Source: Deinococcales bacterium (GTDB lineage Bacteria > Deinococcota > Deinococci > Deinococcales > JAAFIG01). Taken from it: a stretch of DNA of 15,931 nt. Positions 87 through 12,338 of this stretch are shown here, piece after piece. The notes under the pieces are model-generated. The model saw only the letters and a program-made list of their open reading frames with translations, searched no databases and was not told the origin of the DNA. Position 1 is the stretch's first letter, and every line of letters begins with the position of its first letter. The stretch is from the NCBI GenBank assembly GCA_031418155.1, contig JANOWZ010000417.1, positions 1 to 15,931 on the forward strand, given 5' to 3'. A program made the translations under genes and the position numbers.

Positions 87-868
87 ACGATCGCCTCGAG
101 TTTCGGTTCTGCATTGGCAAACGAATACGGCGCGAACGGACCAGACAATTCTGCACGCATCGCCAAACGATCCGGCCAACCGGCAAGCTCACCCAGCAAA
201 AGCGATTCAGAAATCGAATCCAACAACACCGCACACTCGAGCAAACCCGGATTCGCAGCCTGAGACGCAGGAATTCGCTCAAGCACTTTGATTTCCGTGA
301 CCGCATCCTCGAGCCTCGAGAACGCCTCGCGGCGCAAATCGGGAAGAACTTTTTTAACCTCAACCTCGAGCGCATCTTTCAATTTGCGTTTGAACAAATA
401 CTGACGGCCCGGCGTCGAACCGTTCAACTCGGCCTGCAAATCATCCAACTCAGGATTCGCCTCGATCAAACGTGGCTCGAGTTCGTCACGGTCCACCCAA
501 ACCCGCACCGTGAATTCACGCTGACCGTGCAAGGATTTCAAACGATCAATCATGATTTGCGATTCACGCTCGAGCAAAATGTTCAAGCTTTCTAAATCCG
601 GCACGACCGAACCGAAACGCAACGGAATCACACCAGCATCAATAAAACTCGAGATCGTGCGGTCATGCAAAATCGCTTTACCAGCCACCCAATTTGGATC
701 TTCAACATTCTCGGTCAAGAGTTTTGAGAAATCATCGGCGTTCACAGCCTCACAAATTGCGCCAAGTTTCGCGTAAGAATGAACCTCGATTTTTCCACCA
801 CAAACGCCCTCAAGATTTTCTTCTCGAGCATCGGGAACGGTGAACCCATAGACGTAAAAACCCGTCAT
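83..868 (-). CDS. gvpL: Gas vesicle protein, GvpL/GvpF family
   Basis: The translation (MTGFYVYGFTVPDAREENLEGV ... VHSYAKLGAICEAV ... VIPLRFGSVV) has the conserved N-terminal YVYG and downstream RFG pattern of GvpF/L proteins. The ORF track starts it at 886 (MGGGAIMTGFYVYG). The ATG at 868..866 overlaps the gvpG TGA stop (ATGA), so it is the more likely start. Confidence 0.8.
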   Translation of the reverse strand: MTGFYVYGFTVPDAREENLEGVCGGKIEVHSYAKLGAICEAVNADDFSKLLTENVEDPNWVAGKAILHDRTISSFIDAGVIPLRFGSVVPDLESLNILLERESQIMIDRLKSLHGQREFTVRVWVDRDELEPRLIEANPELDDLQAELNGSTPGRQYLFKRKLKDALEVEVKKVLPDLRREAFSRLEDAVTEIKVLERIPASQAANPGLLECAVLLDSISESLLLGELAGWPDRLAMRAELSGPFAPYSFANAEPKLEAIV

Positions 869-1182
869 GATCGCGCCGCCGCCCATTCCGCCTTACGCGC
901 CTCAATCACTTCAATCTGCTCGAGCAACTCCGCCTCGAGGTCCATGAATTCATCCTCGGTGATGCGCCCCGCATCCAAATCCGCACCGAGCGAGGTGAGT
1001 TTGTGGATCAACGGTTTTTCATCCAGCAAGGTTTCTTCGGCCTGATCCGCGATTTGTTCCGCCACCCACAAGATCGGCCCCAGAATCAAATTCAACGGGC
1101 CGAGCAATTCCATGCCCTCGGTGCCAGCGCGAGCCATCAGCGTGAACCTCTGGAAAATGACTGTCTGGCGAGGGCTTGCCAT
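865..1182 (-). CDS. gvpG: Gas vesicle protein G (GvpG)
   Basis: A roughly 100 aa protein with the GvpG-like pattern ELLGPLNLILGPILWVAEQIADQAEETLLDEKPLIHKLTSLGADLDAGRITEDEFMDLEAELLEQI. The ATG at 1182 sits at the centre of a perfect 20 bp palindrome. An alternative internal start (MELLGPL, about 1113) is possible. Confidence 0.65.
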   Translation of the reverse strand: MASPRQTVIFQRFTLMARAGTEGMELLGPLNLILGPILWVAEQIADQAEETLLDEKPLIHKLTSLGADLDAGRITEDEFMDLEAELLEQIEVIEARKAEWAAARS

Positions 1183-1216: not shown

Positions 1217-2011
1217 TCATTCCTCGTCATCCTCCCAACGCACGGTCATTTCGGAAAACGTGAATGGGGGCAATGGGCCGGTCAAACGAATCGTTAACAG
1301 GTCGTGTTGGTCGTCGAATTCGTGCAGTGCGTTTTCGACTTTCTCGAGTTCTGCTTGCGGCATCAGCACGGACAGGTTGGCGACGACCCCTTCGGGCAGC
1401 GTTCCGTTGGAGATGCCTTCGACGAGTCCGTTCAGTCGTTTCTCGAGCGCGGCTCCGACGTAATCGCGGCGTTTGAGAATCGCGTTTTCCATCATTTGTC
1501 CGAGTCGAATTCTGGCGTGATGGTCGGCGCTGGTGGCGATCTTGTCGCGCAGACTCGAGATTTCTGGGTGCTCACTTAAAACACGTTCGATGACTTCGGC
1601 CGGGTCGGTCCAGGTGGCACGAACGCTGAGTTCGACACGACCATCGACGGCATCGAGTTTGGCTTTCAACTCGTCGGCTTTTTGCGTCAAGAGTTTGCGT
1701 TCGATCACCTCTAAACTCGGACCGATGGTGTTGAAGCGCACCGGCAGAACGGGCGTGATCGCCATGATGGTTTCGACAATCGTTTTGTGGGCCAGTAAAT
1801 TCTTGCGGGCGATGCTGTAACGGTCACTCGAGTTCGCACTGAGGACCACGATCAAATCGCCGACGCGCAAGAGGAATGGTTGACCGGAATTCTCAATCGG
1901 TTTTTGCTCGAGCACGTCCGGTAAATCTGGGTGATTGCGGGCGACGGCGTAGAGATAAAACGGTCCTTCAACGGTTGCCAAATCCGGTTTTACGAGCGTC
2001 GCTTGCGTCAT
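1217..2011 (-). CDS. gvpF: Gas vesicle protein, GvpF/GvpL family
   Basis: The translation (GPFYLYAVARNHPDL ... VLPVRFNTIGPS ...) has the GvpF/L hallmarks. The ATG at 2011 overlaps the stop of the upstream gene (ATGA at 2008..2011). Confidence 0.8.
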   Translation of the reverse strand: MTQATLVKPDLATVEGPFYLYAVARNHPDLPDVLEQKPIENSGQPFLLRVGDLIVVLSANSSDRYSIARKNLLAHKTIVETIMAITPVLPVRFNTIGPSLEVIERKLLTQKADELKAKLDAVDGRVELSVRATWTDPAEVIERVLSEHPEISSLRDKIATSADHHARIRLGQMMENAILKRRDYVGAALEKRLNGLVEGISNGTLPEGVVANLSVLMPQAELEKVENALHEFDDQHDLLTIRLTGPLPPFTFSEMTVRWEDDEE

Positions 2012-2952
2012 GCGTTCACCGCTTTCGTGACGCGCACTCCGAGGCCATGCGTGCTTGCGGCCAGCAAATCTCGGGCCCAGGCGAGGTCGCGCATTTCGTC
2101 CGCCGCATTCGGGTTGTTCGGGTTGCGGTCCGGGTGACGTTCGAGCGCCAGTTTCTTGAAGGTTCGTGCGAGCGTATCGCCATCCACATCGTTATCGAGT
2201 CCGAGCGTTTTGCGGGCGCGATCCAAATCCAACGTGTTCGGCGTGATGATCTCGAGGCTGGCGAAGGCGAAGGCGGGTCCGGGGGCACCGATGCGCCAAG
2301 TGATCCGATCCTCGAGTTTCGCATCCAATTCCGTGATCGCATTTTCCATCGCTTCGAGTTGATCGCGTTTGACAAGGAGCGCCAGGTTGAAGGCGCTGTC
2401 TTCGCCGTTGCGTCCAACATTACCAACCTCGAGCACGCTGTCTTTCAGGCATTGGATTGCGAGGTTCAGCAGCGTTTCGCGTTCGCGTTCAAGTTGAGTC
2501 CCGATCATCATTCCGATTCGCGCCTGATCCTCGGTCGTGACCGTGCCACGCTCGAGCAATTCTTGACGGAACGCGCCGACATCTTCTTGAATAGCGGCGC
2601 GTGCAATCTCATCCTGAACATTCCAACGGGCCGCCAGATTGATTTGCGCCGTGTCCTGGAGCCGAGCGAGTTCGGACAAGAGCGTGTCCTCGTGCAATTC
2701 GAGTAGTTCGATCACCCGCTCACGGTTGGGCAGGTTCGCACCGAGTTTGCAGGGCAAGATGCTCGAGGCATTGACGCTGTGAATCGCGGTTTGATGCTCG
2801 AGCAGAATTTGTGTGAGTTGTGCAGGATCGGATGGCAGATTGATGCGTCCCTCACCGATCAACGCGGCGAGCGGTCCAACCCGCACGACCTCGAGCCCTG
2901 GAGACTGAATTTCTGTGGCATCGGCGCTGTAAATTCCGTAAATCGTGGTCAT
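2008..2952 (-). CDS. GvpF/L-family gas vesicle protein fused to a C-terminal DnaJ J-domain
   Basis: The N-terminal roughly 240 aa are GvpF/L-like (MTTIYGIYSADATE ... HSVNASSILPCKLG). The C-terminal roughly 70 aa (TLGLDNDVDGDTLARTFKKLALERHPDRNPNNPNAADEMRDLAWARDLL) form a canonical J-domain with the HPD tripeptide. Confidence 0.75.
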   Translation of the reverse strand: MTTIYGIYSADATEIQSPGLEVVRVGPLAALIGEGRINLPSDPAQLTQILLEHQTAIHSVNASSILPCKLGANLPNRERVIELLELHEDTLLSELARLQDTAQINLAARWNVQDEIARAAIQEDVGAFRQELLERGTVTTEDQARIGMMIGTQLERERETLLNLAIQCLKDSVLEVGNVGRNGEDSAFNLALLVKRDQLEAMENAITELDAKLEDRITWRIGAPGPAFAFASLEIITPNTLDLDRARKTLGLDNDVDGDTLARTFKKLALERHPDRNPNNPNAADEMRDLAWARDLLAASTHGLGVRVTKAVNA

Positions 2953-2968
2953 TTTGGGTTCCTCCCCA

Positions 2969-5119
2969 TCATCGCTTGCTGGCTTTAACCTCCCCGAGTG
3001 CGTTCTCGAGGTCGGATTGTGTTATCTCGAGGCTAATGCTTTCGTTGTCACCAGTTTCTTTCGTTGAATTAGGTATCGAGGCCACAATTGCGTTCTTGGC
3101 GAGGTGAGCTTGCAAGACCAGCATTGCCGCGCGTCGCACCAACCATTCGAGGTCGGCACCGCTCCAACCCTCTGTCTTTGCGGCCAGGGCATCCAGATTA
3201 AGCTCGCCAGCCGTCGCACGACCCCTCAAATGCACACCGAGGATTTCTGCCCGGTCCGATTCACTTGGCAATTTGAACTCGAGCACCTGTTCAAAGCGCC
3301 CAGGACGCAGTAAAGCCGGATCGAGCGATTCGGGCCGATTCGTTGCGCCCAAAATGATCACGTTCCCAAGACTCGAGATGCCATCCATTTCGGCCAGGAA
3401 TTGACCAATCACCCGGCTCGAGACGGCATCCGCATCGGCACGGTTCGCCAACAATGCGTCGATCTCGTCGAAGAAGACCACGCACGGGGCGCTGGCTCGG
3501 GCCTTGCGGAAGAGTTCGCGCACGGCCTTCTCGGACTCGCCGTAGTACCTCGAGAGAAATTGAGCACCACGCACGGCGATGAAATTCGCCTCGGATTCTT
3601 TGGCGACAGCCCGTGCCGTCAACGTCTTGCCGGTTCCGGGAGGACCCGCCAGCAAGATTCCACGCGGAGGCTCGAGCCGGAGTTGCGCGAACAATTCAGG
3701 GTGCTTGAGGGGAGCCTCGACCGCCTCGATCAATGCGGCTTTGACCTCAGACAAACCACCGATCTCCGTCCAACTCGCACCGGCAATATCGGATTCGGTC
3801 TCGCGGATCAAACTCGGTGAAACCTCACGCAGGGCTGCACGGAAATCCTCCACGCCAACCTCGAGTTGCAACATTTCCTGCGCACTCGGACCTCGACCTG
3901 AGGCCGTCCACGTTGGCAACTGTGAACGGACGCGGTGCATTCCAGCCTCTCGAGCCAAGGCCGCCAAATCCGCACCGACAAAGCCGTGTGTGATTCGCGC
4001 CAAGTCATCCAAATTCACGTCCGGCATCAATGGCATCGCCCGCGTGTGAACCTCAAGGATTTCGCGCCTGCCTTTTGCATCCGGCGGATTGATGACCACT
4101 TCGCGGTCAAACCGTCCGGGCCGACGCAAGGCCGGATCGAGGTTGTCCGGCAGGTTGGTCGCACCGATCACCACGACCTGACCGCGCCCGCCGAGGCCAT
4201 CCATCAACGAGAGGAGTTGCGCAACGACACGCTTCTCGACCTCGCCCTGAACCTCAGAACGCTTCGGACCAATCGCGTCGATCTCGTCCAAGAAAATAAT
4301 GCTCGGGGCTTTCGCTCGAGCCTCCTGAAAAATTTCGCGCAAACGCTTTTCCGAATCCCCATAAAACTTGCCAATGATTTCCGGGCCAGCCACCGAAATG
4401 AAATGCGCCCGTGTCTCACGCGCCACGGCTCGAGCAATCGTGGTCTTGCCGGTTCCGGGCGGGCCGTACAACAACACCCCTTTCGGAGGATCGATTCCCA
4501 ACTGCTCGAACACCTGCGGATAACGCAATGGCAACTCGACCAACTCGCGGACTCGAGCAACCTCACGCGATAAACCGCCGATGTCCTCGTAGCTTGCGCT
4601 CGAAGAAGATTGGGCTGGAGCTTGCGCCTCGCCGGAATTCTCGAGCGCCAAACGCGACTCGCCTCCGACCAACGCATGCGATCCAGGCTCGATGGATTTC
4701 ACCCGCAACTCCAATACCTTCGAGCCGAACAACTCCACGCGAACCCGATCACCCGCCGTCAACGCACGGTCCTGCAACAACGTCTTCAAATCCGAGATTG
4801 CCACGCCCGCACCAGAAATCACCTCGAGCACCACGCTCCGTGCCAAGACCGGCTCGAGTCTTGCAACACGCACTTTCGCACCGATGCTCGAACCCGCATT
4901 TTCTCGGGCCAAACCATCCAGCAACACGCCACGATCACGGTCCTCGGGTCTGGACGGCAACGCACGAACCGCCGTGCTGCGCTCACCCGTGACGACAATC
5001 ACACCACCGGCACGCACGCCCAAACGCTCGAGGTCGGCAGGGGACAGGCGGGCGAGGCCACGGCCCGCATCACGCGGCGCGGCCTCGGCGACGACGATCT
5101 CGAGGGCATCGATTACCAT
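2969..5119 (-). CDS. CDC48/VAT/p97-like AAA+ ATPase (N-domain plus two AAA modules)
   Basis: A CDC48-type N-domain ([21 protein letters not shown]) is followed by two complete AAA cassettes. D1 has [16 protein letters not shown] and [23 protein letters not shown]2 has [18 protein letters not shown] and [21 protein letters not shown]. The ORF track begins at a TTG (5131). The first ATG is at 5119. Confidence 0.85.
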
Positions 5120-5233
5120 GTTGGGTTCCAATTGCGGTTCTGTCGTAGGGGCATCGTGTAATGCACGCTGTTGCGTGACGCATGCCTCGCCCCTACATTC
5201 GCGTTCGCCGAATCAACAACTTGCATCAAACCC

Positions 5234-5725
5234 TCAACCCGCGAACGGAACCATCAACTCGAGGATTCCGTTCTGATAAGACTTCGTGAATTCACCTTTG
5301 ACGGCTTTGGAAAGCTCGAGCGTCTTCGCGTACTTGCGTGCCGCTGCACCGTTCGCTTCAAGCTTCAAGGTTTGTCCCTCGAGCGTGACTTGAATGCTGC
5401 TTTCAACCGCGCCTGGAAGTTCGGCAATCACGCTGTAATGTCCGGTTTCCTCTAGCACGTCAACCATCGGTTCGCGCACGGGTTCGACGCTGGGGTTGCC
5501 ACCGTTGTTCGCCATGTTGCCGAATGTGGAGACGGTCGGTTCACCATTTAAGTTCGTGCGAATGTTGACCCCGATCACACCCTCGAGTCCAGATTTTGTC
5601 GTGAAATTCTGCGTGCCGCCTTCAGCGTTTCCCGCCTGTTTTTGCAATTCTTGAACGACCTCGAGAAGATTGTTGATACCGGAAAAAATTCCGCCAAGTC
5701 CGCTGTTGTCGTTGGTTTTCGCCAT
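5234..5725 (-). CDS. Hsp20/alpha-crystallin family small heat-shock protein (GvpH-like)
   Basis: The alpha-crystallin domain is recognisable: VDVLEETGHYSVIAELPGAVESSIQVTLEGQTLKLEA ... KSYQNGILELMVP. An AGGAGA ribosome-binding site lies about 9 nt upstream of the ATG. The N-terminal region is Gly/Asn-rich. Confidence 0.75.
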   Translation of the reverse strand: MAKTNDNSGLGGIFSGINNLLEVVQELQKQAGNAEGGTQNFTTKSGLEGVIGVNIRTNLNGEPTVSTFGNMANNGGNPSVEPVREPMVDVLEETGHYSVIAELPGAVESSIQVTLEGQTLKLEANGAAARKYAKTLELSKAVKGEFTKSYQNGILELMVPFAG

Positions 5726-5830: not shown

Positions 5831-6121
5831 TCAGTACTCGAGCACCATTGATCCGCCTGATCCCATCGACCCCCGCTTTGGTGCGACCCGAGGGGAAATC
5901 ACTTCGGTTTCGTTTTGCAATTCAATGATTCGCGCTTCAAGTTTCGCCAGCGTTTTTTCACCGTCACTCACGCGCTGCCGCCAGTCGGCCAATCCTCGCT
6001 CGAGGCGCTTGCGTTCGGCGGTGAGTTGGTAGATTTGCAGGTACGTGCGGCTTTCAGATTTGGGCAAGGCCGAACGTCGCAAGCTCGAGGGTGCCAAAGC
6101 AGTTTTGCGTGGGGTGGTCAT
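5831..6121 (-). CDS. Hypothetical small protein (96 aa, basic N-terminus, predicted coiled-coil), gvp-operon member of unknown family
   Basis: A strong AAGGAG ribosome-binding site sits 7 nt upstream of the ATG. Its position between gvpN and hsp20 is consistent with operon membership. No family is recognisable by eye. Confidence 0.55.
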   Translation of the reverse strand: MTTPRKTALAPSSLRRSALPKSESRTYLQIYQLTAERKRLERGLADWRQRVSDGEKTLAKLEARIIELQNETEVISPRVAPKRGSMGSGGSMVLEY

Positions 6122-6235: not shown

Positions 6236-7240
6236 TTACAACGTCATGGCGCGTGATGGTTTGCGTTCACCACCGGCAAGCACGGGCTCGCGGATCTCGA
6301 GGATTTCCGTGCGTTCTGCTGTACGCTCGAGTGGTTTGATGGTGCGGGCTTTCGGCAAGAGGTGCAGCATTTTGGCAACCGCTTGGCTCGAGACGGTATG
6401 GCGTTCGTGTTCGTCGCTGATGCTGCCGGTCAGGACATCCAAAACCACGCGCTCGAACTCAAGGTTTCCGGCGCTGACTTCAAGGTTGCGGACGCTGGCT
6501 ACTCGAGCGATTTGCAGTGCGGCGCGAACGCTGTGTTTGATTTTCAGTTTGCTTTCGCCACGCACGCTGGCGACCAGTTCGGTGATGGCGAGCGCATCTT
6601 CGAGTTGCAATCCTGATCGGGCGGCAACAATTCCGCCTTGCGTCTCGAGGTCGAATCCCTCTAAACGCATGGTCACTAGGCGATCACGCAAGGCTTCTTG
6701 CGCGAGGTGCACTCCGGCGTAATCTTCCGGGTTGCTGGTGAAAATCGCTCGGAAGTCCGGGTGAACTTTCATGTACCCGCCCTTGCCCGCCGCGCTCGGG
6801 TAGATCAAAATACCTTCCTCGAGCACCGGCAACAGGACGTTGTTCGCTTCGGCTTTGGAGCGTGTGAACTCGTCATAAACGAGCGTGTAACCGTTCTTGC
6901 AGGCAATCGTCAGTCGTTCATCGACCCAGGAATTGCTGGAATCTTCGTCCACTTTCAAAACGCTGTGGATGTAGTTGTCCACGACTTTGCGGCGGCGAAA
7001 TCCGTTGTTCGCGCCCAGCAAATTGCTGGAACCAAACTCGTTGTCACCGGCGATCAGCACCATCGGGCGGCCCAGTTTCGTGGCGACATGCAACGCGAGT
7101 GTGGTTTTTCCGGTGCCGCTCGCGCCTTCAAAGTTCACGCCGAGGCCAGCCTCGAGATATCCCAAAGCGCGTTTGGTCAGGTCTTTGACCTGCGCGGTTT
7201 CAACGAAATCTTCGCGCTGTTTGGTGCTGATTTGACTCAT
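6236..7240 (-). CDS. gvpN: Gas vesicle protein GvpN (MoxR-like AAA+ ATPase)
   Basis: FVETAQVKDLTKRALGYLEAGLGVNFEGASGTGKTTLALHVATKLGRPMVLIAGDNEF matches the conserved GvpN N-terminus and Walker A closely. Walker B VYDEFTRS is present. The ATG overlaps the upstream stop (ATGA at 7237..7240). Confidence 0.9.
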   Translation of the reverse strand: MSQISTKQREDFVETAQVKDLTKRALGYLEAGLGVNFEGASGTGKTTLALHVATKLGRPMVLIAGDNEFGSSNLLGANNGFRRRKVVDNYIHSVLKVDEDSSNSWVDERLTIACKNGYTLVYDEFTRSKAEANNVLLPVLEEGILIYPSAAGKGGYMKVHPDFRAIFTSNPEDYAGVHLAQEALRDRLVTMRLEGFDLETQGGIVAARSGLQLEDALAITELVASVRGESKLKIKHSVRAALQIARVASVRNLEVSAGNLEFERVVLDVLTGSISDEHERHTVSSQAVAKMLHLLPKARTIKPLERTAERTEILEIREPVLAGGERKPSRAMTL

Positions 7241-7983
7241 GCGCCACTCGAGACGTAACCGTTATCGGAAAGTTTGATTTTGCCGCTGGCGACAAGGCGT
7301 TTGAGCATCGTGGCAACTTCGCTTTGATCGAGTTTCAAGCCTTGTGCGAGGTCCTCGAGTGACAATCCTGGAACGCTCGAGATGGTGCGCAAGACGATGT
7401 GCTCGCGGCGTTTCTCGACTGGGTTCAGCACGGCAACGCCGACGGAAAGAGCGCCCTGCGGCATTGGTTTGGCGGCAGGCTTGCTGGCTGGACGGGCCGC
7501 ACGCACGACTGGTTTGACATCCGATCCGCGCATTTGACGGGCGAATCCCTCGAGTTGTTCACGCATGACCGCACGTGCGGTGGCGTGAGCCTCGAGCAAT
7601 TGACCTGTTTCGGCACTGAGCGTTTCGCGTTCACTGGCGCGTTTGCTGGCATCACGGCGGGCGCTCGAGATTCGTTTTGCACCTTGAGCGGCAAGTGTTT
7701 CTTGCACCGTGGCTTTGCGTTGGTTGTTTTCGTGTGCGCGATCAGTTGCGCGTTGAGCGCCCTGGGTGCTGCGAATCTCCGCGATAATCTCGAGCTTCGC
7801 ATGAACGGCTTGCGCTTGGGTTGCAACCTCGTTTGCACGGGCGATGTGTTCAACGGCGCGGATGGTACTTGCCGCCACGAATTCTTCGCGGCGTTCCTGA
7901 TCAAAATTCAGGCGGTCGCTGGCGGATTTGTTCAGTTTCTCGCGCAGTGCGGCTCCAGCCTGGTCATCTAATGTCATCGGCAT
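7237..7983 (-). CDS. Hypothetical coiled-coil protein with KPAAKP-type linker and C-terminal winged-helix-like domain; gene directly downstream of gvpA (possible GvpC-like structural or regulatory role)
   Basis: It is Ala/Glu/Arg/Gln-rich and predicted helical over roughly the first 150 aa. A VKPVVRAARPASKPAAKPMP linker follows. The C-terminus HIVLRTISSVPGLSLEDLAQGLKLDQSEVATMLKRLVASGKIKLSDNGYV resembles a winged-helix (LexA/ArsR-like) fold. The ribosome-binding site is AAAGGTGA. Confidence 0.55.
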   Translation of the reverse strand: MPMTLDDQAGAALREKLNKSASDRLNFDQERREEFVAASTIRAVEHIARANEVATQAQAVHAKLEIIAEIRSTQGAQRATDRAHENNQRKATVQETLAAQGAKRISSARRDASKRASERETLSAETGQLLEAHATARAVMREQLEGFARQMRGSDVKPVVRAARPASKPAAKPMPQGALSVGVAVLNPVEKRREHIVLRTISSVPGLSLEDLAQGLKLDQSEVATMLKRLVASGKIKLSDNGYVSSGA

Positions 7984-8196: not shown

Positions 8197-8415
8197 TCAG
8201 ACTGCTGGTGCGGCGACCGTCGAGGTCAAACCGATGGCTTCGGCGTACTTCAAGTACGTCTCGACCGATGCAGCAACGACGCGGGCTTCGATGGCGATCA
8301 ATTCGATGCCGACCAGTGAGACGCGGGCGAATGCGTCGATGACGATGCCTTTGTCCAGGATGCGGTCCACAACTTCGCCGAGGCTCGAGGAGTTCATGCT
8401 TTTTTCGACTGCCAT
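8197..8415 (-). CDS. gvpA: Gas vesicle structural protein GvpA
   Basis: [64 protein letters not shown] is a near-consensus GvpA (72 aa). The ATG at 8415 is preceded by a GGAGGT ribosome-binding site. The ORF-track entry 8197..8592 is an in-frame upstream extension with no support. Confidence 0.95.
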
Positions 8416-8840: not shown

Positions 8841-10661
8841 TTGAGTACACGAGGATTCGGCGACACAGACTGGACCGACGGGTTTTCTCGACCGTGGGAT
8901 GTTTCCGTGGCATCATTTGAAGCCATCGAAACCGACCTGGACGAGTTGATCGACCCGGACGGGATCGAGTCTGCATTGGCCATCGACGATCAGGGGAATT
9001 TCCTCGCCTGGATGGATTCGGAACGCGGGATGGCTCCAGTGCCGCTCGCGGCTTCAGAGTTCGAGGCTCCGGTGGCGCAAGATTTGAACGCGCCAGCGGC
9101 GAAAGTGTCTAAGGGTTTCAAACGGTTCACGCCGCCAGTTCCGGTGGTTGAGCCCAGCGAACCGACGACCTATCAGGCCAGCAGCGAGGCGATTGATGCG
9201 GTGTTTGCCGAACTCGAGGCGAGCGCCAAAGCCAGCACAGAACAGTCAGATGCACCCGAGGTTGAGGCGCAGGCAGATGTTCAGGTTCAGGCCGATTCGG
9301 ACATTTATGCTGAGGTCCATTCTGAAGATCAAGACGATCAGGGTGCGGTTGAAGCAAAGGCCAAGAAGCCAAAAATTGATCCGATGGCGCTCGAGGATGC
9401 GTTCGAGAGTGTGCCGTTTGACCTTCCAGAGTTGATGGGCGAACAGTCTGGCACTGTACTCAGTGAGCAACCTGTCGCGCTCGAGGGTGAAGCGGAGGCG
9501 GTCGAAGCTCAGGCAGAAGTTGAACTCCCAGCAGTTGAAGCTCAGGCAGAAGTGGTCGAGGTTGAAGTTCCAGCAATCGAAGCTCAGGTTGAAGTTGTTG
9601 AGGCCGAAGCAATTGTCATTCCCGAGGGCGAACCGGTCGAACCCGTCGCCGCCTGGAAGAAGCCCGTCAAACCCAAAAAGCAACCCAGCGAATTTGGCAT
9701 CGACGAAGTTCCACTCGAAGCGCTGCTCGAGATTGCGAATACCGAGGCCGAAGACGAAGAGAATCATGCCGAGGCCGAAGCCGTCACGATTGACCTGCAA
9801 CCCGAGGCGGATGCGCTTGCCGCAGTTGGCTTGGGCGAAGCAAGCCTTCAGGAAGGCATCATGGCCGCTTACGAGATGGAGGGTGCGCCAATCACCGATT
9901 TGAGCGCATTGATCGAGAGCAGCAAAGCACTCGAGGTTTCAACCGCCCGTGAAGCGGTCAACGAACCGGTCGCCACACCCGTTCATGCCGGATTTGTTGC
10001 TACTGCTGAAAGCAATGAATCGCCAGAGGCCGTGCTCCAGGCGCTCGAGACCAGCGTGCTCGGATTTGAAACACCAGAGATTCAACCGCTCGATGCAGAA
10101 CTCGAAACGGATTCCAGCGTCGCGGCAGTGCTGGCCCCAGAAATCATGAATGTCCCGATGATGCCCGCGACGACCACGTTGCGCCGTCACTTCGACGCGA
10201 CCGACCTGATCGAAGCGCAGATTCGTTTGCGTCACGCACTGCGCCCATTGGACGTTTCGATGGTCTCGCTCTTGGGTCGCGCCGCCGAACGTTGCGCCCT
10301 CGAGTTGCCGGGAATCAAAACGATTGCACTCGCCGAACTCGGCGACAATGGGATTGCAGTCACCGCCAAGATCAAAGCCGTCGAAAGCTTCCGCGAGATG
10401 CTTGCGGGCATCAGCGAGGGCTCGAGCGGCGTTCGTGGCGACCTGAGCGTCGTTGACATCAGCGACCTCGGCTTGGATGAAGTGGTCTTGCCACTCGCCG
10501 GACCGCACCTCTTGCTGACCCGTCTTTCGCCACACCCGGACAAACCGGGTCGCATGCGCGGCACGGTCTCTCTCTCTGGCCTCGTGAACCTTCGCGCTGG
10601 CGCATCATTCCTCGATCAGGTCGTCTCGAAACTCGAGGCTCCGATCACGCTGATGGTCTGA
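8841..10661 (+). CDS. Acidic tandem-repeat protein with a C-terminal 2-oxoacid dehydrogenase E2 acyltransferase (CAT-like) catalytic-domain homologue lacking the catalytic His/Asp
   Basis: A TTG start is preceded by an AAAGGGGG ribosome-binding site. The N-terminal roughly 430 aa are highly acidic and low-complexity with EAQAEV-type repeats. The C-terminal roughly 170 aa align to the E2 catalytic domain: RRHFDATDLIEAQIRLRH against HFDKTDITELEAFRK, VVDISDLGLDEV against FTISSIGGLG, and TVSLSGLVNLRAGASFLDQVVSKLEAP against ISLSFDHRVIDGADGARFI. In that alignment DHR is replaced by LVN. Confidence 0.7.
   Translation: MSTRGFGDTDWTDGFSRPWDVSVASFEAIETDLDELIDPDGIESALAIDDQGNFLAWMDSERGMAPVPLAASEFEAPVAQDLNAPAAKVSKGFKRFTPPVPVVEPSEPTTYQASSEAIDAVFAELEASAKASTEQSDAPEVEAQADVQVQADSDIYAEVHSEDQDDQGAVEAKAKKPKIDPMALEDAFESVPFDLPELMGEQSGTVLSEQPVALEGEAEAVEAQAEVELPAVEAQAEVVEVEVPAIEAQVEVVEAEAIVIPEGEPVEPVAAWKKPVKPKKQPSEFGIDEVPLEALLEIANTEAEDEENHAEAEAVTIDLQPEADALAAVGLGEASLQEGIMAAYEMEGAPITDLSALIESSKALEVSTAREAVNEPVATPVHAGFVATAESNESPEAVLQALETSVLGFETPEIQPLDAELETDSSVAAVLAPEIMNVPMMPATTTLRRHFDATDLIEAQIRLRHALRPLDVSMVSLLGRAAERCALELPGIKTIALAELGDNGIAVTAKIKAVESFREMLAGISEGSSGVRGDLSVVDISDLGLDEVVLPLAGPHLLLTRLSPHPDKPGRMRGTVSLSGLVNLRAGASFLDQVVSKLEAPITLMV
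9500..9620 (+). repeat. Imperfect tandem DNA repeat (about 3 units of 33 to 42 nt, core GAAGCTCAGGCAGAAGT) encoding VEAQAEV(V/E) repeats
   Basis: GAAGCTCAGG(C/T)(A/T)GAAGT recurs at about 9506, 9540 and 9582. Confidence 0.6.
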
Positions 10662-10689
10662 TGATGACGAACTTTCATCAATTCTCGGC

Positions 10690-10758
10690 TGTGCTAGACG
10701 CGAACAAGAATTTCTCGAGCAATATTTTAAAAATTATCATGCAGTGGAAAGGAAACAT
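10690..10758 (+). promoter_or_regulatory. AT-rich segment (TTTCTCGAGCAATATTTTAAAAATTATCATG) upstream of the HD-GYP gene; candidate promoter
   Basis: The local AT-richness is unusual in a window of roughly 58% GC. It lies directly upstream of the GGAAAGGAAA ribosome-binding site and the ATG at 10759. No exact -35/-10 assignment is made. Confidence 0.3.
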
Positions 10759-11403
10759 ATGAGTGATCTCTTCAGAGACGGTTTCATTGACGAGATCGTT
10801 GATGCCTACGTCAAGGACTTCGGCGACCGCGTGGAAAACACCGACCGCTTCGAGCACTACTCCCCAGGACATGCCCGTCGTGTAGCCGAAACCAGCGTCG
10901 CCATCTGCGAAGGTTTGGATTTCGAGGAAGAAGACATTCGCGTCGTCAAAACCGCCGGGTTGCTCCACGACATCGGCGAGGTCATTCAAAAGCACGCCTT
11001 CTACGGCGCACCTCGAGTCTTGACCCCAGAAGAAACCGTTGAGATGTGGCAACACAGCCTGATCGGTGAACGCGAAGTGGCACGTCGCGGTTTTGGACGC
11101 AAAGAACAGTTGCTGGTGCGTTGGCATCACGAACGCTGGAACGGTCAGGGCTACCCGGACATGCTGTTCGGACCCGACTTGCCGCTCGGTGCTCGCATCA
11201 TCCGTTTGGCGGACACCTGGGATGCGCTGACAAACGACCGTCCGTGGCGTTTGGCGATGTCTGAAGCCGATGCGCTCGAGGAGATCAAACTCGGTGCAGG
11301 CATGGAGTTCGATCCAGAACTCGTCGGCTTGTTCCTCGAGTTGCACCAATGCGGAGCCTTGATCCCAAGTGAAAACTTCGCCATCTCAGGAGGCAAACGA
11401 TGA
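10759..11403 (+). CDS. HD-GYP domain protein (stand-alone cyclic-di-nucleotide phosphodiesterase-like)
   Basis: The HD motif (LLHDIGEV) and the HD-GYP signature WHHERWNGQGYPD are both present. The start is assigned to the ATG at 10759, 5 nt after the GGAAAGGAAA ribosome-binding site. The ORF track begins at a GTG at 10744. Confidence 0.8.
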   Translation: MSDLFRDGFIDEIVDAYVKDFGDRVENTDRFEHYSPGHARRVAETSVAICEGLDFEEEDIRVVKTAGLLHDIGEVIQKHAFYGAPRVLTPEETVEMWQHSLIGEREVARRGFGRKEQLLVRWHHERWNGQGYPDMLFGPDLPLGARIIRLADTWDALTNDRPWRLAMSEADALEEIKLGAGMEFDPELVGLFLELHQCGALIPSENFAISGGKR

Positions 11404-12338
11404 GTGGCGTCAAAGAATACGTCGGCGCAGAAGTCATGCTGCTCTCAAAAGTCCTCAAGCTCGAGAGTGTCGCCGTACCCTTCGGTGGACGCAACCCAAT
11501 GTGGCTCGGCTGGTGGATGAAGACTTTGGGCAAGAGCGTGCACATGAACGACCTGTTGCACTTTTCATACATGGACTCGGTCGGCCTGATCGAAAACGAA
11601 GGCTTCTTGTTGGACGGCGACACCCTCGGCGAACTGACCAAAGACATCGGCGACGGCAAGCAACTGACCAACCCAGAACTCGCCCGTCTCGTCCCAATGC
11701 AAGACGCATACTTCTTTGATCAACTTCGTCCACGCATCGAAAAACTGCCAGCCCGTCAAAAAGGTATCGCCATTCGAGCCGGATACAACACCATGCGATA
11801 CGCCCAAGTCATGGACTCCTCGAGATTCGTGAACCTGCGCGTCTCCCTCGACAAAGTCTTCGCCCGTGAAGTCGAAGAGATCAACAAGCGCATCACCTCG
11901 AGCGGCAAAGGCCAAGCGTACATGGAAGAGGCCGGAAGCTTCGTCGGCAACGTTCGCGCCAGCGCCCTGTACATGCAACTGCCAAGCATGGGCGGCTTCA
12001 GCACCGAATACGCTGCGGGCGCACGTCCACGCGGACCACTCGGACGCGAAATCTGGGCACGCGGCCCAAGCAAAACCTGGATGCCAGAACTGAAGGCCGC
12101 CACCAAAGGCACCTTCGGCGACCGCTTCACCTCACGCGAAGCGTACTTCAAAATGGTCTCGGAATTCCTCGAGAAAGCCAACGATTACCCAGTCTGGGTG
12201 TTCAACCTCGAAGAAAGCGAATACCCCGATGTCCTGCGTGCCGTGATGCAGTTCCGTAAGCCAAAAGCCGTGCATCGTTTTGACACACGCGAAGCGAGCG
12301 GCGGGTACATGAGCTACTTCTTGATCGCAGAGAAATAA
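11400..12338 (+). CDS. Dam-like (D12-class N6-adenine methyltransferase fold) protein with a non-canonical motif IV (MQLPS in place of DPPY); translationally coupled to the HD-GYP gene
   Basis: An ATGA overlap with the HD-GYP stop spans 11400..11403. Residue patterns parallel E. coli Dam: KEYVGAEVMLLSKVL against KWAGGKYPLLDDI, VPFGGR against PFVGAG, HMNDLLHFSYM against ADINSDLISLY, and RAGYNTMRYA against NRYGYNGLCRYN. The position expected for DPPY reads YMQLPSMGG. No [DNS]PP[YFW] occurs anywhere in the protein. Confidence 0.5.
   Translation: MSGVKEYVGAEVMLLSKVLKLESVAVPFGGRNPMWLGWWMKTLGKSVHMNDLLHFSYMDSVGLIENEGFLLDGDTLGELTKDIGDGKQLTNPELARLVPMQDAYFFDQLRPRIEKLPARQKGIAIRAGYNTMRYAQVMDSSRFVNLRVSLDKVFAREVEEINKRITSSGKGQAYMEEAGSFVGNVRASALYMQLPSMGGFSTEYAAGARPRGPLGREIWARGPSKTWMPELKAATKGTFGDRFTSREAYFKMVSEFLEKANDYPVWVFNLEESEYPDVLRAVMQFRKPKAVHRFDTREASGGYMSYFLIAEK

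Follow-up and report, generated by a model that had tools for sequence, protein, structure and literature searches.

We analysed a 15,931-nucleotide stretch of DNA from a Deinococcales bacterium (contig JANOWZ010000417.1, hereafter the window), whose minus strand carries a gas-vesicle (gvp) gene cluster. Within this cluster three consecutive genes, referred to below as the trio, encode a GvpH-like small heat-shock protein (sHsp), a double-ring AAA+ ATPase of the CDC48/VAT type, and a GvpF/L paralogue fused to a J-domain (the fusion, or GvpF::J). In the order of transcription, the cluster comprises gvpA, the gene of a 248-aa protein, gvpN, a conserved open reading frame (ORF) of 96 aa, the sHsp, CDC48 and fusion genes, gvpF, gvpG and a gvpL/F paralogue (Table 1). 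It is identified as a gas-vesicle cluster by gvpA, gvpN, gvpG and three gvpF/L paralogues (Pfam, NCBIfam); gvpJ/S-like genes, gvpK and a fourth gvpF, which lie beyond the gene set of the window, were found on the contig of a relative (L001). An initial annotation, made from the sequence alone, had placed the trio between gvpN and the gvpF/gvpG/gvpL block. Its coordinates and domain identities were confirmed by the domain searches run as a check (Pfam, NCBIfam and Foldseek/PDB matches), and the order held, but the trio does not adjoin gvpN directly, because the 96-aa ORF lies in between.

The genes of the cluster are closely packed. An ATGA overlap joins the stop of the fusion gene to the start of gvpF, 16 nt (with GGGGAGG among them) separate the CDC48 stop from the ATG of the fusion, and the start of gvpN is overlapped by the stop of the 248-aa ORF. 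The spacers flanking the 96-aa ORF and the sHsp gene are of about 100 nt each. That between the sHsp and CDC48 genes measures 102-114 nt and contains a hairpin with an 8-bp GC-rich outer stem (GTAGGGGC/GCCCCTAC) and no U-tract; the 116-nt region around it folds at -40.4 kcal/mol (z = -2.6 relative to shuffles), and the hairpin might tune the sHsp:CDC48 expression ratio. No terminator-like site was found on the minus strand within 2008-5725, and promoter and terminator scans gave nothing exceeding shuffle expectation. Co-transcription of the trio with the gvp genes is thus plausible from the layout, given the gene overlaps, the tight spacing and the lack of a minus-strand terminator-like site in that interval.

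Table 1. Features of the gas-vesicle locus, the trio first (positions in the window)
Feature	Position	Strand	Basis or remark
GvpH-like small heat-shock protein, 163 aa	5234..5725	-	NF041800, 4rzk and HSP20 matches
CDC48/VAT-type double-ring AAA+ ATPase, 716 aa	2969..5119	-	Pfam, TIGR01243, motifs
GvpF/L::J-domain fusion, 314 aa	2008..2952	-	Pfam, AlphaFold, Foldseek
GvpF/L domain of the fusion, residues 4-231	2260..2943	-	PF06386, Foldseek
J-domain of the fusion, residues 249-298	2059..2208	-	Pfam DnaJ, Foldseek; HPD at 2128-2136
Hairpin in the sHsp-CDC48 spacer	5144..5196	-	Folding compared with shuffles
gvpA, major shell protein	8197..8415	-	Pfam Gas_vesicle 53 bits; NF006874 126.8 bits
248-aa protein, C-terminal winged-helix (MarR-like) domain	7237..7983	-	MarR_2 27.2 bits
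gvpN (MoxR-type AAA+ ATPase)	6236..7240	-	TIGR02640 312.6 bits, cutoff 266.8
96-aa conserved ORF	5831..6121	-	Between gvpN and the sHsp gene
GvpF, 264 aa	1217..2011	-	Start overlaps the stop of the fusion (ATGA)
GvpG	865..1182	-	Pfam GvpG 55 bits
GvpL/F paralogue, 267 aa	83..886	-	Pfam GvpL_GvpF 121.7 bits

A GvpF paralogue fused to a J-domain

The third gene of the trio had been read as a GvpF/L paralogue with a C-terminal HPD J-domain, and this reading was upheld. The GvpL_GvpF domain (PF06386) scores 87.4 bits (cutoff 23.6) and Pfam DnaJ 32.9 bits, above its gathering score of 27.8, with the HPD tripeptide at residues 273-275. The AlphaFold model (predicted local distance difference test score, pLDDT, 84.5) matched the GvpF crystal structures 6l5d and 4qsg (Foldseek, E = 7e-12 to 4e-11), and its C-terminal part matched many solved J-domains (probability 1.0, root-mean-square deviation 1.1-2.1 Å over 52-59 columns), the DnaK-bound J-domain of 5nro among them. 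The modelled J-domain has helices at residues 240-249, 258-272 and 283-302; helix IV is not evident, and a short beta strand stands in its place. The fusion combines the J-domain fold with the HPD tripeptide in the loop that joins helices II and III, and it also gives weak J-domain matches to the NCBIfam TopJ models. Its tail after the J-domain contains a short predicted beta strand (GVRVTKAV, residues 305-310), and a comparable tail pattern, ending in Arg, follows a variable linker in most of the distant members of the fusion family (alignment A4).

An exhaustive search with the fusion returned 934 representatives at E<=0.001, and at the stricter limit of E<=1e-10 there were 290; most are of 340-370 aa, and the alignments extend through the J-domain. 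Pfam DnaJ was found in 42 of 46 members sampled, and the HPD tripeptide is at least 90% conserved across the 46 aligned sequences. By their source names, the members come from Thermoleophilia, Chloroflexota, Xanthobacteraceae and Deltaproteobacteria metagenome-assembled genomes (MAGs), besides Deinococcales. In the gas-vacuolate isolate Octadecabacter arcticus 238, the fusion (360 aa, DnaJ 28.0 bits) belongs to a plasmid gvp cluster and adjoins an Hsp20-like gene. Such proteins carry no more than the name 'GvpL/GvpF family gas vesicle protein' in databases, and JGI lists them as 'GvpL/GvpF/DnaJ domain'; in the open-access literature we found no paper describing the family. A word-indexed search, which retrieved only relatives of at least 90% identity, had suggested that the fusion is rare, an idea overturned by the exhaustive search; with the 46-sequence alignment as query, word-indexed searching gave just three further usable distant members.

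Two metagenome loci of 18-21 kb (L069 and L081) encode a fusion-family member, yet no gvp, CDC48, Hsp70 or sHsp query matched there. Either their gvp genes are too divergent for the queries, or the fusion occurs outside gvp clusters too.

A CDC48-type ATPase without a proteasome-docking tail

The CDC48 ORF extends from 2969 to 5131 when begun at a TTG (720 aa), and the ATG at 5119 gives a protein of 716 aa, as in homologues. The initial annotation had called it a complete ATPase with N, D1 and D2 domains and intact motifs, and every one of these elements was recovered: the N-domain, with its double-psi barrel and beta-clam (CDC48_N, 68.4 bits, cutoff 35.1; CDC48_2, 28.2 bits, cutoff 22.4), AAA at 308 bits over two stretches with two AAA_lid_3 domains (Pfam), Walker A motifs (GPPGTGKT, residues 223 and 496 in the numbering of the 720-aa ORF), Walker B motifs (IIFLDEID and VVFFDEID), and aromatic pore loops in both rings (KFYG and RYYG). 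On TIGR01243 the protein aligns over model positions 3-713 of 733 and scores 788.7 bits (cutoff 802.65), a model that the gvp-linked CDC48 of Methylosinus passes with 866.6 bits. The C-terminus, ...EVKASKR, has no HbYX docking motif, and neither a penultimate Tyr nor HbYX is found in any of the 19 gvp-linked CDC48s; several archaeal CDC48s do have the penultimate Tyr. Without an HbYX tail, docking on a 20S proteasome is unlikely.

In RefSeq, a 'CDC48 family AAA ATPase' ends the gvp clusters of the Methylosinus sp. C49 and Methylocella tundrae plasmids, with the genes of GvpH/Hsp20 and of a conserved hypothetical protein (about 190 aa) ahead of it. The sHsp-CDC48 pair might have come from an archaeal heat-shock operon, given that the Phr regulon of Pyrococcus furiosus includes both hsp20 and an AAA+ ATPase; however, at three archaeal CDC48 loci (a Pyrococcus abyssi-type paralogue, a Baldrarchaeota homologue and Thermococcus kodakarensis) no Hsp20 adjoins CDC48.

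A GvpH-like small heat-shock protein with a putative CDC48-docking motif

Among the three proteins, the sHsp is the weakest assignment. The window protein matches the solved sHsp 4rzk (E = 6.5e-7) and has a putative, truncated alpha-crystallin domain and a conserved N-terminal segment; it ends ...NGILELMVPFAG directly after the last domain strand, with no C-terminal I-x-I/V motif, and an I-x-I tail is likewise not visible in its close relatives. The orthologues are better recognised. All 14 that were aligned match HSP20 at E<=0.1 (best 7.8e-10), and that of locus L043 passes NF041800 with 167 bits. Pfam GvpH (PF05455) is matched by 11 of the 14 (best 1.6e-5; the window protein has no match at E<=0.1), the L043 protein scoring 21.2 bits (cutoff 22) over model positions 11-170 of 177. 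The CDC48-associated sHsps form one orthologous family, with the common blocks GLGGlFKGlG.L, FGNI, REPLVDVFDE, RKY.K and NGILE, and the sHsp gene is upstream of CDC48 wherever both are seen, within about 260 nt in most loci.

The N-terminal segment contains a motif that resembles the SHP box, whose consensus F-x-G-x-G-x-x-h binds the N-domain of Cdc48/p97 in eukaryotes (PMC8181520). The strict consensus is present at one aligned N-terminal position in 15 of 21 CDC48-adjacent sHsps and a relaxed form in 19, against a mean of 0.56 per 21 in shuffles of the same proteins and a background of 2 matches in 130,339 residues of other labelled ORFs. None of nine other gvp-cluster sHsps has the relaxed motif; these nine include that of Octadecabacter, which has no CDC48, and those of two methanotrophs, in which another protein intervenes. 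The sHsp may act as a CDC48 adaptor through its N-terminal SHP-box-like motif. As the methanotroph sHsps are without the motif, the hypothetical protein of about 190 aa that lies between GvpH/Hsp20 and CDC48 may serve as adaptor to CDC48 in the clusters of Methylosinus and Methylocella (L096, 11080-11661, and L097, 11385-11942, respectively; the Methylosinus protein has no NCBIfam match).

At four loci (L015, L026, L035 and L058), the longest sHsp ORFs run upstream into an XRE-type helix-turn-helix segment (LGLSQE.FA.LLGVSLQTVRRWE.G), which is either a small regulator gene read through by ORF calling or a real fusion of a helix-turn-helix domain to the sHsp.

Recurrence of the module in other gas-vesicle clusters

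The initial annotation had named an unrelated insertion as the alternative to a functional association, and the comparison with relatives shows that the trio is no such insertion. The order gvpN, sHsp, CDC48, GvpF::J, GvpF, GvpG, GvpL is retained in relatives with 67-70% identity in CDC48 and 40-41% in the fusion. Further along, their contigs encode GvpS/J, a fourth GvpF, GvpK, GvpJ, a histidine kinase and a response regulator, and there is no Hsp70 gene within 10 kb at these loci. A metagenome scan seeded on the fusion family (alignment A5), with genes labelled by local tblastn and blastp, gave more than 592 confirmed stretches, and 80 loci were kept. Here again, the same components were found together, in distant metagenome loci and in a 'Deltaproteobacteria' MAG, with the addition of Hsp70 in twelve clusters. 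Among the 17 metagenome loci of at least 15 kb, CDC48 is present in 10, Hsp70 in 10, either of them in 13 and an sHsp in 12, and at least some of those with neither CDC48 nor Hsp70 end early on the flank where these genes lie. The sHsp-CDC48 pair occurs in most long loci, and in the long loci that were mapped gvp genes surround the fusion, L069 and L081 being the 2 of the 17 without any match to a gvp query. By precomputed Pfam labels, a groundwater metagenome locus (L008) and the Deltaproteobacteria MAG (L011) have the same gene content.

Both CDC48 and the fusion are present in 29 loci, the window included, and these fall into two layouts. Seventeen of them, the window again among these, have CDC48 next to the fusion on its upstream side, with a gap of up to 207 nt; no Hsp70 gene was seen within the sequence covered, which exceeds 13 kb in 7 of the 17. 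In the remaining 12, CDC48 lies at least 1 kb from the fusion, at the end of the cluster, and all 12 encode a full-length Hsp70 (702 bits for that of L043). The HPD tripeptide is intact in every first-layout fusion checked and in 10 of the 12 second-layout fusions; the L001 entry is set aside here, since it represents a wrongly picked ORF. The consistent company of Hsp70 in the second layout gives indirect support to the J-domain of the fusion as a putative stimulator of Hsp70 ATPase activity. The first layout may rely on the housekeeping DnaK, or CDC48 and the fusion may form a complex there.

The Hsp70-containing cluster L043 also encodes, next to gvpN (6371-6658, plus strand), a 95-aa protein that consists only of a DnaJ-type CXXCXGXG zinc finger (37.3 bits). 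It would add a further, separately encoded element to a DnaJ-like toolkit; nothing comparable was seen in the window.

One might suppose that the sHsp and CDC48 form a mobile heat-shock unit that travels with gvp genes and has no vesicle-specific role. The best scores of the two proteins are indeed against families of archaeal heat-shock type (NF041800, 'archaeal Hsp20', and TIGR01243), and CDC48 occurs outside gvp clusters on alphaproteobacterial plasmids. However, the pair remains in place within gvp clusters even between lineages that share only about 50% protein identity, it sits between gvpN and gvpF among overlapping or tightly spaced genes, and its third companion is fused to a gas-vesicle domain, so that GvpF::J cannot be a generic stress gene. 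A general stress cassette is, on these grounds, very improbable indeed.

A probable role in gas-vesicle proteostasis

Since the same set recurs in the gas-vesicle clusters of several phyla, the trio is probably a dedicated helper system, and we put the probability that its function is a gas-vesicle-dedicated proteostasis at roughly 0.8. With less assurance, but still on balance, we favour a module that acts in vesicle biogenesis, on the hydrophobic and aggregation-prone shell proteins of the GvpA/J/S/M family. The published biochemistry of the accessory proteins is consistent with this. GvpF binds monomeric GvpA and has been proposed as its chaperone, GvpL binds GvpJ and GvpM, GvpH stops GvpM from aggregating, and proteins of the A/J/M family end up in inclusion bodies when chaperones are lacking (PMC9501494, PMC11445434); heterologous expression of gas vesicles is proteotoxic in E. 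coli (PMC12848028). The suggestion of the initial annotation that the GvpF/L part serves as the targeting element fits the binding of GvpA monomers by GvpF, and the simplest interpretation of a GvpF paralogue joined to a J-domain is that it recruits Hsp70 specifically to shell proteins as its clients.

The proposed sequence of events would be as follows: (i) the GvpF/L domain of the fusion would bind a client of the GvpA family, as the haloarchaeal and Bacillus GvpF proteins do; (ii) the HPD tripeptide of the J-domain would trigger ATP hydrolysis by Hsp70, and with it capture of the client, the partner being the housekeeping DnaK in the Deinococcales lineage and the cluster-encoded Hsp70 in the 12 other clusters; (iii) the GvpH-like sHsp would keep off-pathway shell protein in a rescuable state; and (iv) the CDC48 hexamer would use its aromatic pore loops to thread subunits that have misassembled or aggregated, or assembly complexes that have stalled. 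The subunits would then go back to the soluble pool rather than be degraded, because this CDC48 is without the tail that docks on the 20S proteasome.

The same machinery might instead serve disassembly, CDC48 being targeted by GvpF::J and the sHsp to extract GvpA from collapsed or surplus vesicles, for reuse of GvpA or for an active lowering of buoyancy. CDC48-family rings are extraction machines, both rings have the aromatic pore loops of processive unfoldases, the proteasome-docking tail is absent, and the module is accessory rather than universal, as would be expected of an optional turnover function. The layout of the window, in which the CDC48 gene comes just before that of the fusion at a spacing suited to translational coupling, would befit a CDC48-adaptor pair. 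However, extraction from assembled shells and rescue of off-pathway aggregates fit these data alike, the reported binding targets of GvpF are GvpA monomers and the N-terminal helix of GvpA (PMC9501494, PMC11445434), which suits nascent subunits better than assembled ribs, and the trio lies amid biogenesis genes with which it is apparently co-expressed rather than separately controlled. We regard recycling, though it is the chief rival, as unlikely. Equally doubtful is its most elaborate form, in which CDC48, the sHsp as an adaptor with SHP-box-like docking, and the J-protein/Hsp70 arm would make up an organelle-dedicated machine that extracts GvpA from the shell. If true, such a machine would be the first known enzymatic route for dismantling or recycling gas vesicles, and a ClpB-independent Hsp70-CDC48 disaggregase. 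The initial annotation had proposed a dedicated pathway for either chaperoning or disassembly; the dedicated module is supported, the present data fit both activities, and the choice between them, like the function itself, is one that we infer.

Regulated proteolysis is a common role of AAA+ unfoldases, and CDC48 could in principle unfold Gvp regulators or assembly factors for a protease, thereby setting the amount or the timing of vesicles, somewhat as GvpE is removed in a GvpD-dependent manner in haloarchaea. Candidate regulators are at hand, namely the winged-helix protein encoded between gvpA and gvpN in the window, and the histidine kinase and GerE-type response regulator downstream in relatives. 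Yet the HbYX tail is found in no gvp-linked CDC48 examined, no protease gene was seen in the annotated clusters, and the partners (sHsp, J-domain, Hsp70) make up a refolding set and not a degradation set. We therefore consider regulatory unfolding quite improbable.

Several observations weigh against the favoured role in biogenesis. In Halobacterium, Anabaena, Bacillus megaterium and Serratia, whose clusters are well studied, vesicles form although CDC48, a J-domain and a dedicated Hsp70 are all absent; the module is thus accessory and not core. The cluster of the window encodes no Hsp70 partner, and the co-occurrence survey was seeded on the fusion, without a control set of gvp clusters lacking it. 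As regards the sHsp, the window protein falls below the gathering score of Pfam HSP20 (17.2 against 20.8 bits) and below the cutoff of NF041800 (E = 2.7e-29, 101.9 bits against 140). Its SHP-like motif is degenerate (FSGINNLL, residues 14-21, with Asn in place of the second Gly), and the SHP resemblance in general, which rests on eight residues and a eukaryotic precedent, is best taken as a lead. The window CDC48 has 44-51% identity to archaeal CDC48s and 48-53% to other gvp-linked ones; the neighbour-joining tree gives no resolution between the Deinococcales, other gvp-linked and archaeal groups, and no single gvp-linked clade; and the plasmid copies of CDC48 mentioned above, in Rhizobium and Methylobacterium, have no gvp genes nearby. 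Nor does the neighbour-joining tree of the GvpF domains resolve a single origin of the fusion, the non-Deinococcales fusions being monophyletic and the Deinococcales fusions forming a separate long branch. Finally, the steps of the mechanism are all inferred.

Neighbouring genes and host lineage

The 96-aa ORF has no match in the Pfam or NCBIfam families, but a counterpart of 58-59% identity (tblastn), not called as a gene, lies at the same site in L003 and L004; it probably encodes a genuine small accessory protein for gas vesicles in the lineage of the window. The 248-aa winged-helix protein, which shares 33% identity with a protein encoded at the corresponding place in L003, could be a regulator specific to the cluster; alternatively, it could be structural, whether GvpC-like or not.

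Facing gvpA is a divergent gene set (8841-12338, plus strand), whose products are an acidic protein of 606 aa that matches nothing in Pfam, an HD-domain protein (10744-11403) and an unmatched protein of 312 aa. At corresponding positions, L003 and L004 encode an HD protein of 213 aa and another protein of about 312 aa, with one of about 410 aa (no Pfam match) ahead of them. Downstream of this set are PAS proteins and a ParA/ArsA-like ATPase in L003 and L004, and an ABC exporter and a methyltransferase in the window.

A scan of the genome collection matched only two MAGs (L006 and L007), both labelled Deinococcales. That it gave two species only is due to its Deinococcales-clade-specific patterns, and it is not a measure of the true spread of the family. 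We found no report of gas vesicles in Deinococcales in the literature; if the binning is right, a Deinococcales lineage with a complete gvp cluster is unreported.

Novelty and significance

Part of this is already known: Hsp20 and ArsA-like ATPases were recorded in gvp clusters in 2010, and automated annotation had already labelled the individual domains. For CDC48, the GvpF::J fusion or a cluster-encoded Hsp70 in gas-vesicle clusters, we found no paper in the open-access literature.

The module bears on the question of how an ordered shell filled with gas arises from a very hydrophobic protein with the aid of some ten accessory proteins. That GvpF is a chaperone of GvpA is only a recent proposal. 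Independent genetic evidence for it comes from the natural occurrence of a J-domain on a GvpF paralogue, a fusion that is kept in different phyla and has Hsp70, an sHsp and a CDC48 motor for company. It also offers a testable pathway with clear mutants (HPD, Walker B, SHP-like motif). Gas vesicles are in use as acoustic and magnetic resonance imaging reporter genes, and proteotoxic stress restricts how far foreign hosts can express them (PMC12848028); chaperone-bearing gvp clusters are obvious candidates for better yield and host range. The functions known for bacterial CDC48 are few, and the module extends its biology. If the SHP-like motif binds the N-domain, a mode of cofactor docking deemed eukaryotic would be much older.

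Comparison with known systems

Clusters of gvp genes with hsp20 and an ArsA-like ATPase were described in Polaribacter, Pelodictyon and Geobacter uraniireducens by Castillo and Saier (2010, PMC2963123), who proposed that Hsp20 is a chaperone and that the ArsA-like ATPase energises a biogenic step; the proximity of hsp20 to gvp genes was noted again in 2020 (PMC7325909). The view expressed in the initial annotation that GvpN is the only ATPase usual in gvp clusters cannot be kept in the light of these ArsA-like ATPases (PMC2963123). CDC48, the J-domain fusion and Hsp70 are unmentioned there, and the extra ATPase of the window is CDC48, a ParA/ArsA-like ATPase being encoded in the divergent operon of L003 and L004 but not in the window.

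Haloarchaeal GvpH, which is non-essential and prevents aggregation of GvpM, is like the window sHsp an Hsp20-like accessory protein encoded in gvp clusters, and the Methylosinus counterpart of the latter is named GvpH in RefSeq. Whereas haloarchaeal GvpH pairs with GvpI (PMC9501494), the sHsp family of the window pairs with CDC48 and has a conserved N-terminal segment of its own.

The CDC48 of the window shares the N, D1, D2 architecture of archaeal CDC48/VAT and eukaryotic Cdc48/p97, and is about 50% identical to archaeal CDC48. The SHP-box cofactors Ufd1 and p47/Shp1 have their likeness in the upstream sHsps, which carry a motif of identical form, degenerate in the lineage of the window. The window CDC48 differs from the archaeal and eukaryotic systems in its bacterial host, in the lack of an HbYX tail, in that no ubiquitin-like system is implied, and in that the putative adaptor is an sHsp.

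Among J-proteins, those of class C or type III (auxilin, HscB, the Mycoplasma terminal-organelle protein TopJ) resemble the fusion in their organisation, with a bare HPD J-domain and a targeting domain that dictates the client, and they tether Hsp70 to a single client or site; in the fusion, GvpF/L does the targeting and the J-domain stands at the C-terminus. In contrast to DnaJ, the fusion lacks the Gly/Phe region, the zinc finger and the C-terminal domains that bind clients, and has the GvpF/L domain instead.

As a whole, the trio invites comparison with the bi-chaperone system IbpAB / DnaK-DnaJ-GrpE / ClpB, in which labour is split in the same way between an sHsp holdase, a J-protein that brings Hsp70, and a double-ring AAA+ motor with aromatic pore loops. 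The motor of the window is of the CDC48/VAT type, with a double-psi-barrel N-domain and membership of the classical AAA clade, and not an Hsp100/ClpB protein; it is without the M-domain, the site at which ClpB is activated by Hsp70; and the trio is embedded in an organelle operon rather than in a heat-shock regulon. By analogy, the trio would thus parallel the sHsp / Hsp70-J / ClpB triad, with CDC48 in the place of ClpB and a J-protein hard-wired to one class of clients.

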